IMG/VR virus record: IMGVR_UViG_3300036772_000367
Span: 64,001-128,000 of that record
DNA: 64,000 bases
Source: a virus
Direction: 5' to 3' (one strand)
The notes below the pieces were generated by a model, which was not told the origin of the DNA, searched no databases, and saw only the letters and a program-made list of their open reading frames with translations. Positions 1,971 to 54,511 of the stretch are shown here, in pieces (position 1 is the first letter of the stretch; each line of letters begins with the position of its first letter). A program made the position numbers and the translations under genes.

Positions 1971-4463
1971 GTGCTGCGGAAGACCGCTGTCTTTGATGTC
2001 CTGGATGTCATCCAGGCGCATGATATTGCGCGACAGACTCCTCTAGGGCCGATCAGTCGCATCGGTCATCGACATGTCTTTGATTTCGAGCCTCGGTATG
2101 GCTACCTCTATGTTCGTAGCCGGATGATTTCCTCGCGGTGCAATGATAACTTCGATGAGTTCCCCGCCGAGGAAATCAAGAAAGCCTACGCCACGTTCGT
2201 CGGCAAGCCAGTCTTCGTCAACCACAATAACGATGATCACCGTCGGATGCGTGGTCTGATCATCGATGCCGTGCTGCACGAAGATCGTAACCCAGATGGC
2301 TCCCCAGACACCTGGGTCGAGGGCCTGATGGAGATCGATGGCCTGCGGTATCCCAAGTTGGCCAAAGCACTCATCAAACGGCACATCGAGCGCACCTCCA
2401 TGGGTGTGGACGTTGAGTACTCCATCTGTTCGAAGTGTGGCAACAAGGCCACCACACCACTGGAGTACTGCCGCCACGTGCCGGGCATGAAGGGCAAGCG
2501 CATCTACTCCTTCACCAAGTCTGGTGCCAGGGTCAGCGAACTGATCCGGGAGAAGTGCTACGGGCTGGGGTTCTTCGAGAACTCCCTGTTGGTCGAGCCA
2601 CCAGCAGATCCAACTGCCCTCTTTTTGGACAAGCCCATCCTCGGTCCTGGACTGGAGCACCTGGCCATGACGGCATCGGACCGTTACCTTCAGCGTATTG
2701 CCTCCGTCGCGGCATCCTTTCGTCTGGTAGCTGGGATGCGCTGCGTGGCATGTCGGGGTCTGAACACCGTGGCCGACCTAGAGGGGCACCACGAGTGCTT
2801 CGACTGTTCGGCGGCTTGGAACTCGCGTACCGCTTCTCTGGAAGTGGAAGCGGCTCCGCGTTACGCCGATCCTGCCCAACATCCTTGGTTCCAGCAGCAC
2901 CCGCTGAATCACCAGAACATCGTGGATCATTGGCATCAGGCCACTCCCGACGAGCGTACCCAAGGAATGCATTGGTATTCTGATGCGCATATTATCGGGC
3001 AGGCTCTCGGTGAGCACCATGAAAAATCGCATGGTCTTGTGCACCCGCAGGGTGCATCACATCTTGGTGCGGGCATTCTTGCGACCTACTCGCCTCAGAT
3101 GGGTTGGGCAGGCAATATGCACAATGCCGCCCGAGTGTTGCACGGCAACAAGGGCATCGGTGGACCTAATTCCGGCATGATGGCCAGTACCCATCAACGC
3201 GTCGCAGCCGACCGCATTCTCAACGGTGAGAACTACATGGATGTGCTCAAGGGTCCGAAGATCCAGGACTTCGCGCACCTGATCGAGCATGGTGGGGACG
3301 CTGATCCTGATCATCCTCATGTCGTGGTAGATCGTCATGCACTCTCGGTTGCCGCTGGTCATCGGCTCACTGATGAGCAATACGGTAAGGCTCCTACTTC
3401 GCAGCGGCACTACTACGGCCATGCCGTGCAGCAGTACCATCACGCTGCCCGTGAACTGTCCAACGAGGAGTCCAGCCCCGTCGCTGGGCATCAGGTGCAG
3501 GCCACTACCTGGCTGGTCCGTCAGCGCCTCAATCAGGCCGAAGAAAAGGCTCATGCCCAAACAGGAGCCGACACACGATTGGACCGAGGACGCGATCGTG
3601 CTCGGGGCAATGCGGAAAAGAAGTGGGAGGACTGGCGCACGGAGAACCTGCCTGATCTCCAACACAAGGGACCAGGCACCGGCTATGTCGCGCGACGGCG
3701 CAGTGTGGCCTATGGCGAGACGAAGGCCCCGGCCGACGTAGACACCCTACGCGAGGAAGCTTGTCCGGTTTGCGGTGAGGAGAACGCCTACGACGGCACC
3801 GAGTGCAAGGTCTGCGGTTTTGTCGCGCCACCCAAGGAATTCCAGGATCCTGACCTGGAGATGGCCAAGCGCGTCGACCTGCGCAAGGACGTGTCCGATT
3901 TGAATGGTGCCGACGTCTCCGATCTCAACGAGGATCTCAACGACGTTGACAAGGACGGACTTGACGACGAAACCGGGGAACCGGTCGACGGTACTGGCCC
4001 TGGCGACGTGCAGCCGACGTTGGTGTGCAACAACTGCGGCACCGAGTTCGAGGCAGGCGAGCCCATCACGACCGACACACGTGATCCGCAGGCTGGTGAC
4101 GCGGGACTCGGCCCCGACGAAGGTGACGTCTGCCCGGCCTGTGGCAAGGGCATCTTGGAAGCTCCCAACGATCTGGACGTCTCTCCACAGGACGACCAGA
4201 ATCGCTCCGAGCCCGAGGACCCTGACCCGTCTGCTCAGCAAACACCTCCTTTCTCGCGCGATCGCGGCGAAGAAGATGAGGATGAGAACGAGCAGAATGG
4301 GCAACCAGACAACGACGAGGACCCCGACGCCCAGGAACGCAACTTCGTGCCGACTGACGAGGATGGGGATCCTGATGATGATGGCGACAATGACGAAGAC
4401 GCCATTCCTCCGCGTAAGCGCAAAGGCACGCCTGCTCGCCAGGACCGGAACCCCTTCAAGTGA
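1971..4463 (+). CDS. Capsid maturation protease-like protein with an internal glycosylase-like domain, Zn ribbons and acidic C-terminus
   Basis: N-terminal FVGKPVFVNH...TSMG...ENSLLVEPPADPTA; central WYSDAH...SPQMGW...GPKIQDF...VVVDRHA...QVQATTW; CxxC pairs; lies before scaffold and capsid genes. Confidence 0.7.
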   Translation: MLRKTAVFDVLDVIQAHDIARQTPLGPISRIGHRHVFDFEPRYGYLYVRSRMISSRCNDNFDEFPAEEIKKAYATFVGKPVFVNHNNDDHRRMRGLIIDAVLHEDRNPDGSPDTWVEGLMEIDGLRYPKLAKALIKRHIERTSMGVDVEYSICSKCGNKATTPLEYCRHVPGMKGKRIYSFTKSGARVSELIREKCYGLGFFENSLLVEPPADPTALFLDKPILGPGLEHLAMTASDRYLQRIASVAASFRLVAGMRCVACRGLNTVADLEGHHECFDCSAAWNSRTASLEVEAAPRYADPAQHPWFQQHPLNHQNIVDHWHQATPDERTQGMHWYSDAHIIGQALGEHHEKSHGLVHPQGASHLGAGILATYSPQMGWAGNMHNAARVLHGNKGIGGPNSGMMASTHQRVAADRILNGENYMDVLKGPKIQDFAHLIEHGGDADPDHPHVVVDRHALSVAAGHRLTDEQYGKAPTSQRHYYGHAVQQYHHAARELSNEESSPVAGHQVQATTWLVRQRLNQAEEKAHAQTGADTRLDRGRDRARGNAEKKWEDWRTENLPDLQHKGPGTGYVARRRSVAYGETKAPADVDTLREEACPVCGEENAYDGTECKVCGFVAPPKEFQDPDLEMAKRVDLRKDVSDLNGADVSDLNEDLNDVDKDGLDDETGEPVDGTGPGDVQPTLVCNNCGTEFEAGEPITTDTRDPQAGDAGLGPDEGDVCPACGKGILEAPNDLDVSPQDDQNRSEPEDPDPSAQQTPPFSRDRGEEDEDENEQNGQPDNDEDPDAQERNFVPTDEDGDPDDDGDNDEDAIPPRKRKGTPARQDRNPFK

Positions 4464-12437: not shown

Positions 12438-14849
12438 ATGGCGACATTTGTTGCCAAAACAGACTGGGTGCATCCGAAGTCTGGCGGTACTTCCTTTTCC
12501 GTGACCCTGTCGCACACCGCTACCGCTGGCAACAAACTGGTGTTTTTCAGCGGTGGCGGTGCTATCTCCACTCCCACGGGTTTTACTGAACTCACCACCT
12601 ATGGGGGCGGTACGGAGGACGTTTCCATCTGGGACAAGACCGCTGCGGGCGGTGAGACGTCAGTTTCGGTGTCTCTCAATGGCTCCGGAGACAATGTCGG
12701 TGGAACCATCCTGGAGTTCGGGCCTGGCTTGACCTTCTCAGCGTGGTCCAACAATGGCACTGGCAACGTCGCCCAGCAATCCAACGACTACCAGATCTTG
12801 CCTTCGTCGGCGGTGTCGTTGTCCTCCGGCAACGGCGTGTTGGTCTCTATCCACACGGCCGCCACCTCGGTGGCCTGGTCGTTGGCCAACTCCATGCGCT
12901 CCTACGGACCACTGGGTTCGCTGATCAGCGTGGGTGGCAACGTGGATGCCAGTGGCACCGAGTTCTTCAACTACGGCATCGGCATCGCTGATGTCACGTC
13001 CACCGGTTCCTACCCGGCCACCGCAGCGGCGGGCCACTACACGGCGACGACGAACTACACGCCTGGCTCAGGGCGATGCTATGCGGCCCAGGTGCTCTAC
13101 ACCGACACGTCGGGTGTCGCCACCGTGGCTCCGTCGACCAAGACAGCGCAGGAGAACTCCCTGCCGGGGACCGTCTACCAGAACTGGTTTCTGGGTGACA
13201 ACGGCACCGACTCCACGACAGCCGCGTACACGGACTTTTGTTCGTATAACCCCGGCGACACTGTCAATTTCAAGGTGAATTCTTCTAACAATCCATTCCG
13301 AGTGGAGATCTATCGTCTAGGGTTCTATTCCTATGAGACATTCGGCGCTCGCAATGTGTTGGGTAATCAGGCTGGCTACATCACCGGCACCGCGATGGTC
13401 CAGCCGACACCCACCACTGATTCCACGCTGGGGTCGGTCTCGTGTGGTTGGACGACGAATGCCACCTGGGCGATCCCCTCGACCGCACAATCTGGTGTGT
13501 ACTACTACTTCGTGCGTCGTACGGATGTGACCACGCATGTTGCCTCAGGGCACTTCGTGGTCAAGGCAGCCTCGGTGACCAACAAGATGGTGGTGGTCAT
13601 CCCCGATCAGACCCATCAGGCGTACAACCGCTGGGGTGCCATCACGGACACTGGCACCACCATGACCGGCCGCAGTCTATATGCCTCCGGTGCCGACGGC
13701 GGCACGTGGGTGTTCACCGACCGGGCCTACGCGGTGAGCTTCGATCGGCCCTATGGTCTGCAAGCCGACCGCGACGTGACGTATCTGTTCGACTCCACCA
13801 TGTCCTTCATCTCTTTCGCCGAGGCGCAGGGCTACGAGATGTGCTATGTCAGCGACATGGATCTGCACGCCAGCCCCACGATCTGTCAGGGTGCGGCGAT
13901 GGTGGTGCTGGCTGGTCACCAGGAATATTGGACGACGAATACGTACAACGCGATGTACAACATCGTGAACAATTATGGCATCAATGTCGTGAACCTCTCT
14001 GCGAACACGGCATTGTGGCATACGCGGTTCGCGTCGGCCGACACAAACTACCGCACCATGATCTGTTACAAGGAATCCGGCACCCTGGATGTTGGGCCCA
14101 ATGGTGCGCTGCCGGGCACCGGATATGATCCGGTATCCTACACGGGAACATGGCGTGACACTCGGCAGCTCTCGGGCACCGTCAACAATGTTGACATCCG
14201 GCGCGAAAATTTCTTGGGTCAGATCTTTGTGATATCGGGTCACTTCTCCGGTCAGGCGGTCATCGACGCGGCCCACAAGACAAGCCCGATCTGGCGCAAC
14301 TCGGCCGGAGTCCAGGCGCTGACCACGGGGCAGACTTACACGTGCCCCATCACCTCGATCGGTGATGAGACTGACTATCCGGATGGCTCCTCCGGGCAAC
14401 CGGCCAACATGGTGATGTTGTTCTCCCAACCAGGCGTGACGTCGAGCTTGGGTGCGAACGCGGCAGGCACTTTGTACAGCAGCAGCGTGACAGTCACGCT
14501 GGGATGGACACTGGCACAGACCTCGGGCGGATCACTGATCTTCTCCACCGGCAACTGGCGTGGTCACAACCCGATCTCCCGCTGGCGTACCGCTTCCACT
14601 GCCCCCTCCACCGGAGGCATAGATCTGAACTGGCAGAACGCCCTGCTCTGCATCTTGTACGACATGGGACAGACGCCCGTCACGCTCACTGCGATGCAAC
14701 CGGGCACAGACACGGCTGTCACCGATCCCGCGATGGGTGGCATGGGGCAAGGCAAGACCACTGTAGGCAAAGCTTATGGATTGCTGGAGCCCACCCCCAA
14801 AGTGGCCTTTATGTACAGCCAGGCCGTCAATCGTTCGGCAACATACTGA
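12438..14849 (+). CDS. Virion protein with an N,N-dimethylformamidase beta-subunit-like domain
   Basis: SYNPGDTVNFKV...VEIYRLGFY...SGVYY...THQAYNRWG...SFDRPY...GHQEYWT. Confidence 0.7.
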   Translation: MATFVAKTDWVHPKSGGTSFSVTLSHTATAGNKLVFFSGGGAISTPTGFTELTTYGGGTEDVSIWDKTAAGGETSVSVSLNGSGDNVGGTILEFGPGLTFSAWSNNGTGNVAQQSNDYQILPSSAVSLSSGNGVLVSIHTAATSVAWSLANSMRSYGPLGSLISVGGNVDASGTEFFNYGIGIADVTSTGSYPATAAAGHYTATTNYTPGSGRCYAAQVLYTDTSGVATVAPSTKTAQENSLPGTVYQNWFLGDNGTDSTTAAYTDFCSYNPGDTVNFKVNSSNNPFRVEIYRLGFYSYETFGARNVLGNQAGYITGTAMVQPTPTTDSTLGSVSCGWTTNATWAIPSTAQSGVYYYFVRRTDVTTHVASGHFVVKAASVTNKMVVVIPDQTHQAYNRWGAITDTGTTMTGRSLYASGADGGTWVFTDRAYAVSFDRPYGLQADRDVTYLFDSTMSFISFAEAQGYEMCYVSDMDLHASPTICQGAAMVVLAGHQEYWTTNTYNAMYNIVNNYGINVVNLSANTALWHTRFASADTNYRTMICYKESGTLDVGPNGALPGTGYDPVSYTGTWRDTRQLSGTVNNVDIRRENFLGQIFVISGHFSGQAVIDAAHKTSPIWRNSAGVQALTTGQTYTCPITSIGDETDYPDGSSGQPANMVMLFSQPGVTSSLGANAAGTLYSSSVTVTLGWTLAQTSGGSLIFSTGNWRGHNPISRWRTASTAPSTGGIDLNWQNALLCILYDMGQTPVTLTAMQPGTDTAVTDPAMGGMGQGKTTVGKAYGLLEPTPKVAFMYSQAVNRSATY

Positions 14850-47998: not shown

Positions 47999-48598
47999 AT
48001 GCCCCATCAGGTCAAGACCCTCGTCGGGAATGTGACTCTACCGTCCGACGATGAGGGCCCGCCGATTTCCGTCCAGGCCGCGCAACAGACCATCACGTTG
48101 ACGGACGCGCAGTATGCGAAGATCCCGCCCGCCGCTTTCGCCAGCATGTCGTTCTACCAGGAACTGACGCCCGACCAGATCTCTAACGCCAACGCGCCGT
48201 ACCAGGGCCTGTACTACTCCCTCACCGGCACGCACAGCGCCTACCTCCAGGACCTGGGGGCGACTGCCGGCGGCAGTATTCTGGTCACGGCTCAGGGCAC
48301 GCACGTCGCTGCGATGGGTGCTCTGACCTCGTCGGCCCCAGCGGCCGTGACGTCCAGTCAGAACGCCACGACCATCGCGGTGACGCCCGCCAACGCGTCC
48401 TACACCCAGGCTGACCAGACCACGATCGCCAACCTGGCGAACGCCCTGAAGATCAGCTACAACGCCGCGCAGGTCGACATCGCAGCCCTGCGCACCACGT
48501 TGGCCGCAGTGCAGACCGACTTGGCGACACTGCGCACGTTGGTGAACACTGAGCTGGCCGCCCTCCAGATCACAGGTGGTCCGCAGGCAGCGAGCTGA
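47999..48598 (+). CDS. Probable virion fibre/decoration-like protein
   Basis: AGGAG RBS; C-terminal coiled coil LRTLVNTELAALQ; late motif upstream. Confidence 0.7.
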   Translation: MPHQVKTLVGNVTLPSDDEGPPISVQAAQQTITLTDAQYAKIPPAAFASMSFYQELTPDQISNANAPYQGLYYSLTGTHSAYLQDLGATAGGSILVTAQGTHVAAMGALTSSAPAAVTSSQNATTIAVTPANASYTQADQTTIANLANALKISYNAAQVDIAALRTTLAAVQTDLATLRTLVNTELAALQITGGPQAAS

Positions 48599-48611: not shown

Positions 48612-48648
48612 CTCGACCCCGCACCTCCTCCAGGGTGCGGGGTCGAGT
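48612..48648. terminator. Hairpin between convergent units
   Basis: ctcgaccccgcacc...ggtgcggggtcgag. Confidence 0.7.
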
Positions 48649-48688
48649 CTGTCTAGAAATATGGAAAGCGACGACGCACTCCTGGACT

Positions 48689-49690
48689 GGAACACCCATC
48701 GATGGCTTGGCGAATGAATCACCCCAATGAAACACTCTGGATCGCGGTGTGTGGAATACCCATATAAGATGTCGCGAACGGAACACTCCAGATAGTGGCG
48801 AGAAGTCGTCGGGCGTGGAACACCCGTAACTGCCAACACGCCAAGGAGGAACACCCTCAAATCGGCGCGTACCTGTGCTATGGAACATCCCCGTAGAACA
48901 AAAGACCCGCTCGGCTACCGCTGTCGGAACACCCCGTGTACGTGGGACAGATAGGTGGACCGACGATCTACGCCGAGGCCGGGAGGGAACACCCTCAGGA
49001 ATCAAGGTCATCGCCCTGGGACGGGAGGGAACACCGGACCCTGCTACATCGGCAGCGGCAAGTGGAACACACAGGCAGTGGTGAGGAACGTCGGGGGAAC
49101 ACCCTGTTCGGATTGCTTCCCCCGTAGGAATACTCTCACAGGTACCGGTAGACGTGCCGAGAACACCCTGTACGGCATGATCGACTGATCGTCGCGGAAC
49201 AAACCCTCAGATCTTTCGGATGACCAGGTAGCCCAGAACACTCTCGTGAGAACACTCTTGTACAGCGGGAGTTATACAAGTTCGCTGGAGCAGCCTCGCA
49301 TACACGGGACAGATCTGGAGCCGCGCGGGAGGGGAGAACACCCCTGTGTACGTGGGATAGACCTTACGTGTGTCGGCGTAAGCCCGTACAGCAGAAGAAC
49401 ACCCTCGCGTACACAGGAAAGACGGCCCGCCGTCGCTGTCCGCCTTGAGTGGAACAACCCTGAGTACGTGGGACAGACGGACCCTTCTTGCCGAGCCACA
49501 GTCTGTCACTCGGAACACTTCTGCGTACGTGGGACAGACCGCTCGAAGCGATCCTTGAATGCCTGACGAGCCGGAATACCCCTGTGTACGTGGGCAGACC
49601 TTGGCGGTATTCGCGGCCCGGAACACACCCGCGTACGCGAGACAGACGGCGGCCCTGTAACCACGGATGGATGAGCCAACGGAACATCCC
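48689..49690 (-). CRISPR. Degenerate type I-E-like CRISPR array with no cas genes in the window
   Basis: 27-28-nt repeats, consensus approximately GTCTGTCCCACGTACRCAGGGGTGTTCC, at + starts 48926, 49287, 49335, 49396, 49451, 49512, 49573 and 49620; four 61-nt periods; about 17 further units with only the GGGTGTTCC-like end. Confidence 0.8.
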
Positions 49691-49714
49691 GTCAGGGCAC
49701 CGATTTCCCGTGTC

Positions 49715-49875
49715 CATATCACTATGTAGATATAGGGGTGTGTCAGGAATTACTTCCTGGCGGTGGCCATCTGACGATGGTCTTCTCGTTTCACCGAGGA
49801 CTGCTCACCATTGCTGGTGAGACTGACATTCTCTCCACGAGCGTTTAATGTCTCCCCTGCTCCAGAGGCGACAGA
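49715..49875 (-). ncRNA. Putative TnpB omegaRNA overlapping the tnpB 3' end
   Basis: GUCGCCUCUGGAGCAGGGGAGAC...AAACGCUCGUGGAG...GUGAAACGAG...CAGGAAGUAAUUCCUG...ACACCCC hairpin series; boundaries approximate. Confidence 0.55.
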
Positions 49876-51201
49876 TCGATCAGGGGCCCATTCCACCAGA
49901 TTTCTGGCGGCATTCACGTCCCGATTGAGGACGAGACCGCAATGATCACAAACATATACTCTGTCCTGGAGGTTCAGCGTGGCTTTAACTGAACCGCATC
50001 GAGAACATACTTTACTGGAAGGAAAAAATCTGTCTACCACGGTCAGGGCAGATCCGTACCACTGGGTCTTGTAGTCCAGTTGGCGGCGGAACTCACCGAA
50101 CGCGGCATCCAGAATCGAGCGCGAAAGACCTGATTTCGCTCGAACATTCTTGCCGGGCTTCTCGACGGTGCCTCGGGCTGAGGCTGTCATGCCGAGTACG
50201 TTCAGATCTTCGATGGCCACGCGCTCGTACTGCGTAGCCAAGTTCTTGGTCAGCCCGTGCAGGAACGATGCTCGTTGCTCGGCGACCTGGTGGTGAATGC
50301 GGCCGACCCGAACTGCCGCACGATGACGTCGTGCAGAGCCCCGTTCGGTCCGACTCAGTCGCCGCTGTGCTGTGCGCAGTCGTGCGGCAGCAGCGCGGAC
50401 GAACCGAGGATTGTTGATCAGGGTGCCGTCCGAGTAGGCGGCCAGGTGCAACAAGCCCACATCGACACCGACGGCACCACGGACACGCTGGGCACGCGTG
50501 GTGGGCCGGAGAACGTGCTCTGCCGGCTCCTTCACCAACACGGCCGCGTACCACTGCGAAGCGCCCCGAGATAGCGCCACGGACTGAATCCGGGCACCCC
50601 TACTCAGGGCACGCACCAGACGCTTCGCCGAGGAGTGCAAGCGAAGCGACCCGAGTCGGGGAACGAGTAGGTGCCGGTATCCATCCGGGCGGATGGTAGG
50701 CGACTTGACATCGTGGTAGATCCGGAATGAGTCGCGCGAGCGACCCTTCTTCTTGAACTTCGGGTAGCCCATCTTCCGGCCTTTGCGTTTGCCGGTGAGG
50801 GAATTCATCCAGTTCTTGAAGGCAGCATCGGCATCGGAGAAGGCCGAGGAGAAGGTGTAGGAGGACACGGTGCGCCACCAGGGGCTGGCACCGTCCTCGC
50901 CGGTCTTCTCGTCGCCTCGGATCTTGATCCACGCACTCTTCATCGTGAAGGCCGTCGGGATCTTGATCGACACCTGCTTGCGGGCGACCTGCTCGTCTAG
51001 GCCCTCGTCCACCAGCGCCTGGACCTGGTCACGCCAGGTCTGATGCACGCCGATCTTCACCGCCAGGGCGTGATTGAATGCCCATCGAGCGGTGCCGGCG
51101 TGCTGTGCCAACGCGGACAGCTGGTTCTGGTTGGGGTCCAGGTTGAAGCGGTACGCGCGGAGGATCGTCGCCGACTCATCGGACTCGGTCATCTCACGCA
51201 C
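49750..51201 (-). CDS. tnpB: RNA-guided endonuclease TnpB (ATG 51192 is better spaced from the RBS)
   Basis: AYRFNLDP HTH, YPKFKKK, RuvC GVDVG / IEDL / RDVNAARN, Zn ribbon CSRC..CDHC; all three catalytic acids present. Confidence 0.95.
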   Translation of the reverse strand: MREMTESDESATILRAYRFNLDPNQNQLSALAQHAGTARWAFNHALAVKIGVHQTWRDQVQALVDEGLDEQVARKQVSIKIPTAFTMKSAWIKIRGDEKTGEDGASPWWRTVSSYTFSSAFSDADAAFKNWMNSLTGKRKGRKMGYPKFKKKGRSRDSFRIYHDVKSPTIRPDGYRHLLVPRLGSLRLHSSAKRLVRALSRGARIQSVALSRGASQWYAAVLVKEPAEHVLRPTTRAQRVRGAVGVDVGLLHLAAYSDGTLINNPRFVRAAAARLRTAQRRLSRTERGSARRHRAAVRVGRIHHQVAEQRASFLHGLTKNLATQYERVAIEDLNVLGMTASARGTVEKPGKNVRAKSGLSRSILDAAFGEFRRQLDYKTQWYGSALTVVDRFFPSSKVCSRCGSVKATLNLQDRVYVCDHCGLVLNRDVNAARNLVEWAPDRSVASGAGETLNARGENVSLTSNGEQSSVKREDHRQMATARK

Positions 51202-51231
51202 CTCCTTCAGTCGCTGGAACCGGTAACACGT

Positions 51232-51260
51232 AATCTACGCATGTCTTCCGCAGAAGTCAA
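51232..51260 (-). promoter_or_regulatory. Sigma70-type promoter of tnpB
   Basis: TTGACT-17-TAGATT, then GAAGGAGG RBS. Confidence 0.7.
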
Positions 51261-51341
51261 ACTACTACGGAGGTAGTTTTCTCTTCCCTCGGAGGTCACT
51301 GGGCTGCTACACTTCCTAAAGACGCCAACCGCACCGGAGGA

Positions 51342-53336
51342 ATGAGCGCCATGAGCTGGAAGTCCGCACAGGCCGCATTGTCCGCAAGCCTGCCCCGCTA
51401 CGAAGACCGCCCCGAGCAGACCCGCCTGGCGACCACTATCGAGCAGACCTTCGCCACGGGCACGCACGAGCTGGCCCAGGCCGGTACGGGCACCGGTAAG
51501 TCCCTCGCCCTGCTGATCCCGGCCATTCAGTACTCCCTGGAGACCGGCGGCCCGGTGGTTGTGGCCACCGCGACCAAGGCCCTTCAGGACCAGTACGCCG
51601 GCAAGGACCTGCCGTTCCTGCGCGAGCACCTGGGTGTCGAGTTCGACTACGCGGTGGTCAAGGGTCGCAGCAACTACATCTGCCTGGCGAAGGCCAACGC
51701 TCTGGCCCCCAACGTGGTGCAGAACCAGGTCGCGCTGCTGGAGGAGTTGATCACCCACAAGACCGGCGACTTCGACGAGCTGGCCACCGTCATGGACCCG
51801 CGTGACAAGCCGCAGCTGACCACCGGTTCGGACGAATGTCCCGGCAAGCGGGACTGCCCCTTTGGTGAGATGTGCTTCGCCGAACAAGCCAAGCAGCGGG
51901 CGCGCGAGGCCAACATCATCGTGGCCAACCACTCGGTGCTGGTGACCGATCTGGCCGTGAAGCAGGCAACGGCGGGACGCGGTTCCCTCCTGCCCGACTA
52001 CGACGCGGTGGCCATCGACGAGGCCCACGAGCTGGAGGACTACACCACCAACGCCATCGGCGGGGAGTTCACCCAGCGCAGCTTCACCGCGTACTCCACC
52101 GAGGTCGCCAGCTTCCTGCACGACCCGAAGATCACCCAGCAGGTCAACGGTGCCGCCCAGCGGCTGTTCACCACGCTGGAGCGGTTCCAGGGCAACGAGA
52201 AGACCCGGAACCTGACCGACATGGCCGTGTTGGACCACGAGTCTGAGTTCATCGCCGCGATCGACGCGCTGCGCACGCTGCGTACGCACGTGGAAGCCGA
52301 AAAGATCGTCGGCAACGACGACGCGGCCGGTCGGCGCAAGCGGTTGCTCAAGCGGGGCAAAAGCCTGATCGACCGGCTGGTGGCCGTGGTGCTGTCGGAC
52401 TCCGAGGACTTGGTTCGCTGGGTGGAGCGCGACGACAAGCGTGGCGTCATCCTGAAGTACGCCCCCCTCTCGGTCGCGAGTTTCCTGCGGGAGAACCTGT
52501 GGCAGCAGGTCAGTTTCCCGGACTCCGACCTGGGCGACAGGCTGCCGGAGGTCACCAACCGGACCGTGATCCTGCTGTCGGCCACCCTGGCGCTGTCCGG
52601 AGACTTCGGCTACATCGCCTCCCGGTTGGGTCTGGACGAGTACAACTCGTTCGACGCCGGCACGCCGTTCAACTACCCGCAGCAGTCGGCCCTCTACGTT
52701 CCGCAGACCGACTTCGATCCCTCGCAGGGTTTCACCTGGCAGGCCAAGATGTCCGCGTCCATCGGTGAGATGGTCAAGGCAGCCGGTGGCCGGGCGCTGC
52801 TGCTGTTCACCTCGCGCACCGCGATGAACGCCGCCTACGACACCACGGCCAACCAGATGGCCGCTGCCGGCCTGACGGTACTGCGCCAGGGTGACAGGCC
52901 CAACCGGCAGCTCGTGGACGAGTTCAAGGCCGATGAGACCTCGGTTCTGTTCGCGCTGAAGTCCTTCATGACCGGTGTGGACGTGCAGGGCGATGCCCTC
53001 CGGCTGGTCGTGATCGACAAGCTGCCCTTCCCGGTGCCCACCGACGTCATCGTCAAGGCCCGTGCCGACGCCGTTGACGCCAAGGCGAGGAACAAGTGGG
53101 TGGATGGTGCCTTCCCCACCCTGACGGTGCCCGCCATGGCGCTGACCCTGATGCAGGCGTTCGGTCGGCTGATCCGGACCCGGGACGACGAGGGTCTCGT
53201 TGCGATCATGGACTCGCGGTTGTACTCCAAGAAGTACGGCAAGAAGATCCTCGCCGCACTGCCGTCGGCCCAGCGGTTGACTACGCTGACCGAGGCGACC
53301 GACTACCTGGCGGAGCTGACCAAGCGTCGGGGCTGA
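51342..53336 (+). CDS. dinG: DinG/YoaA-family helicase with Fe-S cysteines
   Basis: RPEQ, AGTGTGKS, KGRSNYIC, DEAH, SATL, LFTS, GVDV, DKLPF, QAFGRLIR. Confidence 0.92.
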   Translation: MSAMSWKSAQAALSASLPRYEDRPEQTRLATTIEQTFATGTHELAQAGTGTGKSLALLIPAIQYSLETGGPVVVATATKALQDQYAGKDLPFLREHLGVEFDYAVVKGRSNYICLAKANALAPNVVQNQVALLEELITHKTGDFDELATVMDPRDKPQLTTGSDECPGKRDCPFGEMCFAEQAKQRAREANIIVANHSVLVTDLAVKQATAGRGSLLPDYDAVAIDEAHELEDYTTNAIGGEFTQRSFTAYSTEVASFLHDPKITQQVNGAAQRLFTTLERFQGNEKTRNLTDMAVLDHESEFIAAIDALRTLRTHVEAEKIVGNDDAAGRRKRLLKRGKSLIDRLVAVVLSDSEDLVRWVERDDKRGVILKYAPLSVASFLRENLWQQVSFPDSDLGDRLPEVTNRTVILLSATLALSGDFGYIASRLGLDEYNSFDAGTPFNYPQQSALYVPQTDFDPSQGFTWQAKMSASIGEMVKAAGGRALLLFTSRTAMNAAYDTTANQMAAAGLTVLRQGDRPNRQLVDEFKADETSVLFALKSFMTGVDVQGDALRLVVIDKLPFPVPTDVIVKARADAVDAKARNKWVDGAFPTLTVPAMALTLMQAFGRLIRTRDDEGLVAIMDSRLYSKKYGKKILAALPSAQRLTTLTEATDYLAELTKRRG

Positions 53337-53378
53337 CACACACACGATCTTCCTTTACACTCGGCGACAGGAGAAATC

Positions 53379-53413
53379 CTGTCGCCTTTCTTTGTCTTCC
53401 CTTCGAGGAATGA
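53379..53413 (+). promoter_or_regulatory. Putative late promoter motif (variant)
   Basis: CTGTC-N21-GAGGAATGA. Confidence 0.5.
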
Positions 53414-53436
53414 CACTGCTCCTGTAAAGGAATACG

Positions 53437-54366
53437 ATGATTGCTACGTGGGTTGATGCCGACAATACTTTGTCTGGAACAACGTTGGTGGCGGCGAAGA
53501 TTTATGGTGCACTGCGCTACGTCGGCATCGGTACCGGTCCGAAACGCATGACGGTTGCTGAACGAAATGACTTGACCGCACATAGCATTACGGTATTCGG
53601 TATTGCCGAATCCACCGTCACGGAGGCGGATAACGGTTACAACGCTGGTGTTCGCGATGCCCAGGCGGTGCTTGCGGATCCGGCTAGTGTTGGATTGCAA
53701 TACATCTTCGCCGTTAATGATAAACCCACTTATATTCAAAGCGACGTGGACTACGTGCGTGGCTTCGCGTCTGTGCTTGGTACCAGGGCCAGTGCATATG
53801 GATTCGCCTCCTTTCTGGTCGCTGTGCGGACCCAGACGCCTGTATCTTTGTACTGGCAGGCGGGTCTCCCTCCGAATATGACTGGTACCCAGTCTTTTGT
53901 GCATTTCTGGCAACGACAAGGCACCAGCGGTAACGGTTCGGACGGACCGGCCAACCCGACGACTGCGGTCATTGGTGGCGTGACCTGCGATCTGAACAAT
54001 CAACTTCTGGAGGTAGTCGTGACCCAACCCGCAGATATCTGGAGCTACGCGATTCCCAATCCGTTGTTCGACTCGACTGTCACCGACTCGGCTGACGTCC
54101 GTAGCCACAAGGCATATACGGCCGCGCAATTCTTGGTGGGTGACTGGCGTAACGATCTTCAGACCCAGCAGACCGTGAGTGCCAACCAGGTGGCGTTGCT
54201 GTCGGCTCTCAAGACGTTGCCTACGGGTGGCCAGGTGGACGTCCCGACGTTGGTAGCGGCATTGGCAGCCCCGCTGGAGGCTGCGCTGGCCCCCCTCCTT
54301 CCGCAAGGCGTTACGGCAGCTCAAATGGCGCACGAGCTGGGCGCGGCGTTGGACGCGGCGAAGTAG
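53437..54366 (+). CDS. Endolysin with a GH25-like (DUF1906-type) glycoside hydrolase domain
   Basis: GALRYV...KRMTVAE...GVRDAQA...IFAVND...YVRGFASVLG...AYG...YWQ...GVTCDLN. Confidence 0.75.
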   Translation: MIATWVDADNTLSGTTLVAAKIYGALRYVGIGTGPKRMTVAERNDLTAHSITVFGIAESTVTEADNGYNAGVRDAQAVLADPASVGLQYIFAVNDKPTYIQSDVDYVRGFASVLGTRASAYGFASFLVAVRTQTPVSLYWQAGLPPNMTGTQSFVHFWQRQGTSGNGSDGPANPTTAVIGGVTCDLNNQLLEVVVTQPADIWSYAIPNPLFDSTVTDSADVRSHKAYTAAQFLVGDWRNDLQTQQTVSANQVALLSALKTLPTGGQVDVPTLVAALAAPLEAALAPLLPQGVTAAQMAHELGAALDAAK

Positions 54367-54511
54367 CACATTACTGTCTACTTCGTACTGAGAACTCTCA
54401 GGATGAGGTAGTTGACGGAGACGGGGCACGGAGCACTACGATGTCGTCATACCGATCGTGGTACGAGTACCCCTACTTCGACTGAGATCGCCACTACATC
54501 AAAGGGGAATA

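Follow-up and report, generated by a model that had tools for sequence, protein, structure and literature searches.

A phage-borne array of probable guides, with most repeats reduced to nine nucleotides, beside a Cas12n-like nuclease gene

The DNA analysed here is a stretch of 64,000 nucleotides (positions 64,001 to 128,000 of IMG/VR record IMGVR_UViG_3300036772_000367), referred to below as the window, from a 155-kb virus genome that is complete by CheckV. The window has a G+C content of about 59%, and the genes around it serve phage replication or encode tail proteins; their few database relatives come from Gordonia and Arthrobacter phages. Within a replication module that includes an SNF2 helicase, a DinG-like helicase and a 5′-3′ exonuclease, a minus-strand block sits between a 199-aa gene (47999-48598, plus strand) and the DinG-like helicase gene (51342-53336, plus strand). 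The block consists of a gene for a 483-aa TnpB-family protein (49750-51201) and, after it, 1.1 kb with no credible coding potential; the array region in that kilobase matched no Rfam family above chance. A search with the DinG-like helicase returned distant relatives alone (≤48%), without a comparable array. Two long minus-strand frames, 51207-53345 and 53281-54429, have neither family matches nor relatives and are antisense shadows of the DinG-like helicase gene and of a 309-aa gene (53437-54366, plus strand); a 712-aa frame that was used to find phage relatives returned nothing and is itself antisense and spurious.

Read along the minus strand, the block begins with a promoter-like site (TTGACT, 17 nt, TAGATT; 51232-51260), a match to the consensus alone, upstream of the nuclease gene, whose RuvC residues and zinc ribbon are intact. 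Two conserved hairpins mark the 3′ end of this gene: CCAUC-GUCA-GAUGG (49767-49780) lies within the reading frame, and CAGGAA-GUAA-UUCCUG (49744-49759) holds the nuclease stop codon (49750-49752) in a GNRA-type loop. They are followed by an anti-repeat, ACACCCCU (49734-49741), complementary to AGGGGUGU at the repeat 3′ end, and, 44 nt after it, by a first tail, GGATGTTCC (49681-49689), which has no repeat body; the guide-RNA scaffold of the nuclease itself probably has its native 3′ end here. The proximal array (49287-49647) comes next, with seven decayed full 28-nt repeats of I-E-like sequence (consensus GTCTGTCCCACGTACACAGGGGTGTTCC), and then the distal part (48689-49257), where about 18 units are left with the final 9 nt of a repeat (GGGTGTTCC-like) and a single repeat with its body stands among them (48926-48953). 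A perfect 14-bp inverted repeat (48612-48647) between the array end and the convergent 199-aa gene is probably the terminator that closes this transcription unit.

The distal part had been singled out in an initial annotation, which named 16 motif positions and a nearly full repeat at 48926, all in one orientation, and read them as units derived from a type I-E-like repeat of which the last 9 nt had been kept. All 17 are present on the plus strand, and the choice of strand was correct, the motif being the 3′ end of the minus-strand repeat. In the 64-kb window there are 19 matches to RGAAYACYC where 3.6 would be expected, and none of 100 shuffles reached 19; 15 of these matches lie within 48689-49573, every one of them on the plus strand. 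With up to two mismatches to GGAACACCC, 26 copies are found on the plus strand of 48640-49760 as opposed to one on the minus strand (background 1.9 per kb). The 26 copies span 48689-49689, and there is no other such cluster in the 155-kb genome. Motif spacing in the short-unit part is 24-44 nt, with two broken units at 13-14 nt. In the RNA sense each short unit is a tail followed by 15-35 nt of unique sequence (4-5 nt in the two broken units), so that a guide of 15 nt or longer would fit in every unit except two.

Roughly 18 of the 26 units retain 9 nt of the repeat, and 8 keep the 28-nt I-E-like body. When the 19-21 nt at the expected position of the body were scored, 17-18 units were indistinguishable from random (local score ≤6; null 95th percentile 6) and 8 scored 7-17, yet in the units with a random-like body the 9-nt tail averages about one mismatch. 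The tails are continuous with the decayed 28-nt repeats; the earlier derivation from a I-E-like repeat holds, and the persistence of tails beside bodies that score as random, which recurs in two related loci (L268 and L270, below), supports the earlier view that retention was selected and not random. Remnants of the repeat body (CGTACA, TACGG) lie beside the tail in several short units, as independent deletions would leave them. Units of the proximal array recur every 61 nt, apart from three shortened ones of 47-55 nt, and shortened spacers are present among the full units too. Repeat lengths of 28-29 nt with 32-33-nt spacers are found in 49287-49647 and at 48926, and not in the remainder of 48689-49257. 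The full repeats are all different from one another, with broken hairpins and weak folds. An A at position 2 in 7 of the 26 tails gives weaker pairing with the anti-repeat, and two pairs of neighbouring units (D7 and D9) are similar in their flanks.

Sequence homology identifies the product of 49750-51201 as a relative of Cas12n (type V-N), a small TnpB-like nuclease. In a phmmer search against solved structures the best match was Cas12n of Rothia dentocariosa (RdCas12n, 9J09; E = 3.2e-94, residues 11-77 and 102-462); the Pfam OrfB_IS605 and Cas12f1-like TNB domains both match, and the RuvC triad D244, E328 and D425 is invariant in 26 homologues. The protein is 54% identical to a homologue from Actinomadura craniellae, which carries an HHDVK-type motif where the window has YHDVK; the HHDV(K) motif has been described as a PAM-reading element, and the YHDVK version has been assigned to the AcCas12n-like clade (PMC12216341). 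The phage has one copy of the gene, and the 155-kb record is without Cas1, Cas6e and Cas7e (PF01867, PF08798 and PF09344 absent). In Cas12n systems the tracrRNA sequence extends over the 3′ end of the reading frame, the crRNA consists of the last 20 nt of the repeat and a 20-nt guide, and the PAM is 5′-AAN (PMC12216341). The structure of RdCas12n shows a pseudoknot at nucleotides -4 to -2 before the guide, and an upper repeat:anti-repeat stem that lacks order and tolerates trimming, structural engagement being confined to the 3′ end of the repeat (PMC12216341). Retention of the last 9 nt in the window matches both of these features, the pseudoknot and the trimmable upper stem.

Across 17 loci, the two hairpins at the 3′ end of the gene show compensatory changes in 12 of 16 pairs (6 of 8 in the stop-codon hairpin), which is consistent with the published tracrRNA overlapping the Cas12n reading frame. 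Right after the stop-codon hairpin, 6-12 nt are complementary to the repeat 3′ end in all 14 loci compared, through at least nine different sequence pairs. Giving the stretch after the hairpin first and the repeat 3′ end second, these include ACACCCC with GGGGTGT, ACATCCCC with GGGGATGT, CCATCCC with GGGATGG, GTCCTC with GAGGAC, TCACCC with GGGTGA, CACTCC with GGAGTG, CAGCCC(C) with (G)GGGCTG, CCTTCCCCGC with GCGGGGAAGG, and CTTCCC with GGGAAG. In a matrix of anti-repeat and tail sequences taken by eye at fixed positions, from loci that are related and so not independent, complementarity averages 6.8 nt within a locus versus 4.2 nt between loci, and a value as high as the observed one did not arise in 100,000 permutations (p < 1e-5). 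In 11 of the 14 loci the last 3 nt of the repeat lie outside the duplex, and the 9-nt unit of the window is made up in the same way of a pairing stretch, GGGUGU, and three unpaired bases, UCC. An automatic search with the reverse complement of the post-hairpin stretch recovers the repeats in further loci, and one array locus (L375) is without clear anti-repeat complementarity. The minimum-free-energy fold of the scaffold, computed on the single sequence, contains no anti-repeat:tail duplex, and the CCC of the anti-repeat could alternatively pair with an upstream GGG. Relatives without an array (L273, L372, L373 and L376) have a single tail that pairs with the anti-repeat, 55-170 nt downstream, and this is the ordinary one-guide form. 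The initial annotation had offered 'minimal guides for another effector' as one of two readings, and an adjacent Cas12n-like TnpB with an anti-repeat that covaries with the 9-nt tail gives that reading comparative support.

Homologues in viral contigs escaped a single-protein search and were found only with a profile. The five closest homologues fetched are 79% (L268), 74% (L269), 66% (L270), 61% (L271/272) and 57% (L275) identical to the window protein, and all five, together with many at 50-60%, have I-E-like repeats or tails downstream on the same strand. The array lies directly downstream of the effector, on its strand, in L268, L269, L271, L275, L281-284, L287, L361, L363, L379, L382 and L383; profile searches of viral and metagenome contigs contributed many such array loci, among them those just named from L281 onwards as well as L368, L371 and L375, and also returned other relatives with no array. 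Because the arrays of the close homologues always follow the nuclease gene on its strand, we read the window array on that strand too.

In the closest homologue, L268, the gene flanking the locus is 57% identical to the 199-aa gene of the window, and gene, terminator, array and nuclease follow in the same order, which marks L268 as the orthologous locus in a related phage. Clean GTCTTCCCCGCTTACGCGGGGATGTTCC repeats lie downstream of the nuclease gene on its strand, and tail-only units (2989-3360) lie distal to them. Alignment of the window array with the L268 array showed no spacer in common. L269 has a lone tail and then full repeats until the contig ends, the L271/272 sequence ends inside a first repeat, and L284 contains an internally deleted repeat. 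L270 has tails alone, with GGGATGGTTC occurring about nine times at a spacing of 26-48 nt, no trace of repeat bodies, and guide room of 14-17 nt and more. In the same locus (L270:3880-3951) the called gene stops about 60 nt before the position of its relatives' stop codon while both hairpins can be followed onward in register as nucleotide motifs, and this segment appears, from its sequence, to be conserved as RNA and not as protein. In records from Mycobacteriaceae (L275:3440-3620) the called 511-aa TnpB product runs into the first I-E-like repeats (GTCGCTTCCACGCGCGGACGGGTGAGCC), and its annotated C-terminus is probably an artefact.

The array anatomy, the Cas12n homology, the conserved linkage of gene and array, the covariation and the recurrence of tail-only units enabled us to propose a model for how the system might work. 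We consider it probable that the distal stretch is the old part of the CRISPR array of a phage-borne, type V-N-like system, in which remnants of the repeat have been kept as guide handles. In this model transcription of the minus strand would start at the promoter-like site and run through to the inverted repeat (48612-48647), giving a unit in the order promoter, nuclease gene, tracrRNA-like scaffold overlapping the 3′ end of the gene, array and terminator. The array would have originated in ordinary I-E style, with 28-nt repeats and 33-nt spacers, and new units would presumably be inserted beside the nuclease gene by the Cas1-Cas2 of a host type I-E system, which we presume because the phage has none. 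The nuclease would pair with the scaffold from the 3′ end of its own gene, and after processing a guide would be read as the repeat 3′ end followed by the first ~16-20 nt of the spacer, so that any sequence after a tail able to pair with the anti-repeat could serve to direct the nuclease to a target. On this reading the last 9 nt of the repeat would comprise 6 nt pairing with the anti-repeat and 3 nt beside the guide, while the 5′ two thirds of the repeat (a Cas6e-type hairpin) and the far end of the spacer would be needed for adaptation only; the I-E-style body and the leader-end motif would serve to borrow the adaptation machinery of the host. Since uptake would need the leader-proximal repeat alone, the body and the far spacer end of older units would be free to mutate or be deleted, and the outcome would be a compressed array of 9-nt handles with guides of 15-35 nt, its short units still being loaded. 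The gradient in L268, where proximal repeats are clean and distal units are tail-only, agrees with such a decay of older units.

The most serious competitor is a dead array, a neutral wreck left after loss of function, whose tails survive through shared history or by chance. The full repeats are indeed all different with broken hairpins, the leader end is degenerate, two units leave no room for a guide, and searches for protospacers in phage collections, plasmid collections and the phage's own genome gave chance-level matches only. A wreck of this kind would nevertheless have to account for bodies that are random-like in 17-18 units beside tails with about one mismatch (26 matches against about 2 expected), for the same selective retention of tails in L268 and L270, which makes three lineages with the window, and for a nuclease gene, catalytic residues, hairpins and anti-repeat that are all intact. 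We therefore regard it as unlikely.

A second alternative leaves the function as we propose it and changes the origin, with the short units arising as successive duplicates of the guide-RNA 3′ end of the nuclease, an array of omega-RNA tails. The origin of arrays by duplication of omega-RNA segments has been considered before (PMC10691335), and the bodiless tails of L270, the array-less relatives with their single anti-repeat-pairing tail (L273, L372, L373 and L376) and the flank similarity of D7 and D9 would all fit growth of this kind. In the window and in L268, however, the short units lie distal to full repeats and are mixed with decayed full repeats; several of them carry remnants of the body beside the tail, and their unique parts are otherwise unrelated. 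This makes growth from the guide-RNA end an improbable account of the window, more so than a dead array would be, though a more plausible one of L270.

Improbable to a further degree is the reading that the initial annotation had favoured, an RNA sponge in which a long transcript with many copies of the 5′ handle would titrate the Cas5e/Cas7e of a host type I-E system. The retained 8-9 nt do correspond to the would-be 5′ handle of a I-E crRNA, and the element is carried by a phage. The idea nonetheless found no support here, and it leaves unexplained the nuclease linkage, the covariation of tail and anti-repeat and why tails are spaced by no less than about 15 nt. Known RNA anti-CRISPRs, moreover, reportedly mimic the repeat hairpin, the very part that is missing from the short units. 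Least credible of all is an array of double-stranded DNA sites for a phage protein, such as origin iterons or a partition site, for although many short repeats of one sense fill a non-coding kilobase inside a replication gene module, their spacing is irregular (24-44 nt) and not helically phased, the motif runs on from the CRISPR repeat and changes along with its RNA partner sequence in other loci, and related phages without the nuclease have no such array upstream of the helicase. Binding sites of this kind also fail to explain the nuclease linkage and the covariation. Among the nearby genes neither an initiator nor a ParB was identified.

In the clean arrays of sister loci a conserved leader-end motif precedes the first repeat, and it is common to the mini-array of Saccharomonospora phage PIS 136. 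In the window, the first lone tail and the first full repeat are separated by 33 nt (49648-49680, minus strand) ending in ACAGGGCCGCC, which matches the leader-end motif of the sister loci, GCAGGTCAGGAAGT, weakly; this suggests that spacer uptake may have lapsed in the window phage. With all full repeats decayed and the sequence before the first of them only weakly leader-like, spacer acquisition by the array may have ceased, and the array could be in the course of being lost. The mini-array of PIS 136 itself (JX006077.1, ~12845-13052; L440:3008-3215) is an unannotated I-E-type array of four GTCCGCCCCGCGTATGCGGGGATGAACC repeats, with the leader-end motif CAGGTCAGGAAGT as in the nuclease-linked arrays and with no TnpB or anti-repeat nearby. 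According to a preprint, C2c9 (as Cas12n was formerly called) and the type I systems with which it co-occurs have the same PAM.

TnpB relatives have acquired arrays repeatedly (PMC12216341; PMC10691335; PMC12669027), and the window element can be placed among them. Like type V-N Cas12n (formerly V-U4/C2c9; RdCas12n, AcCas12n; PMC12216341), it has an effector homologue with an intact RuvC and an array downstream, as well as a predicted tracrRNA region over the 3′ end of the frame, complementarity between the repeat 3′ end and the scaffold, and no adaptation genes. The described systems have regular repeats and a 20-nt handle derived from the repeat, whereas the repeats of the window are mostly 9 nt long and their carrier, a 155-kb actinophage, is also unlike those described. 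The Cas12r-CRISPR system of Thermus Lalka phages (bioRxiv 10.64898/2026.04.20.719267) is likewise a phage TnpB-like nuclease without adaptation genes; its short array combines degenerate I-E-like repeats of 29 bp with spacers of 32-33 bp, and adaptation by a host type I-E system has been proposed, but the nuclease belongs to another branch of TnpB, is reported to be tracrRNA-free and has no tail-only repeats described. TranC (Jin et al., Cell 2025, as cited in PMC13565253 and bioRxiv 10.64898/2026.03.27.714800) shares the concept of a TnpB guide RNA split into a tracr scaffold and array crRNAs; LaTranC is a distant relative of the window nuclease (E = 1.7e-18), and TranC repeats are reported to be 32-38 bp long. 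A canonical type I-E array would likewise have 28-nt repeats, a 61-nt period and the I-E-typical repeat sequence found here, but the window genome has no Cascade, Cas6e or Cas1 genes, most units have lost the hairpin and the linked effector is of type V. RNA anti-CRISPRs and solitary repeat units are also phage-borne, repeat-derived and non-coding, whereas the short units of the window are without the structured hairpin half and carry unique sequences of guide length. Mobile IS607/IS605 TnpB elements (OMEGA), finally, differ in that the window gene is single-copy and has many guide units rather than one.

Relative to known Cas12n and TnpB arrays, what appears to be new is the cutting down of repeats to 9-nt tails, as arrays with repeats naturally reduced to nine scaffold-pairing nucleotides were not found in the searchable literature. 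If the short units are loaded as guides, the locus would amount to a natural truncation experiment for Cas12n, in which nine repeat bases and ~15-20 spacer bases are enough, and it would point to very compact multiplex guide arrays for a nuclease already in genome-editing use. It would also separate, within one locus, two jobs of the repeat, with uptake served by the whole repeat at the leader end and guide loading by the tail. The array further bears on how type V arrays arose beside TnpB genes, whether an existing array was captured or guide-RNA ends were duplicated. More tentatively, a bare 9-nt tail pairing with a tracr-like scaffold might in general be enough for a working multi-guide array, so that the tail-only arrays, L270 with its bodiless tails above all, would be living cases of arrays that expand out of, or contract down to, bare duplicated 3′ ends of TnpB guide RNAs, with the I-E-style repeat an add-on for borrowing the spacer uptake of the host; we would call this possible and no stronger.

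Pattern searches for the motif itself yielded little. A tandem 15-mer pattern found no arrays in bacterial genomes and had been built for the opposite, wrong strand; a looser pattern of three GGGACAGAC tails, also on the wrong strand, returned 107 unrelated arrays from bacterial genomes, and a viral scan for two GGAACACC(C) motifs 20-36 nt apart gave at least 117 matches, mostly single chance ones. An exact 15-mer of the window repeat does occur in arrays of low-GC, Lactobacillus-type phages (L127 and L136). A plus-strand orientation of the window array had been inferred from this match and was dropped given the order of gene and array in the close homologues. The two low-GC phages (L127:479-2130; L136:2425-4073 with L123:1-220) are related to one another, about 127 kb long and bounded by direct terminal repeats, with Lactobacillus phage 3-521 as a distant relative. 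Each has a gene for a 418-aa TnpB that is 25% identical to that of the window, then about 180 nt, and then four to six GTGTTACCCATATGTACGTGGGACAGAC repeats with a 61-nt period; the first 16 nt of the reverse complement of GTGTTACCCATATGTACGTGGGACAGAC are common to the window repeat. About 20 nt past the TnpB stop codon both phages carry GTCTGT, the complement of the last 6 nt of their repeat, and the spacers of the pair are entirely different within flanks that are nearly identical.
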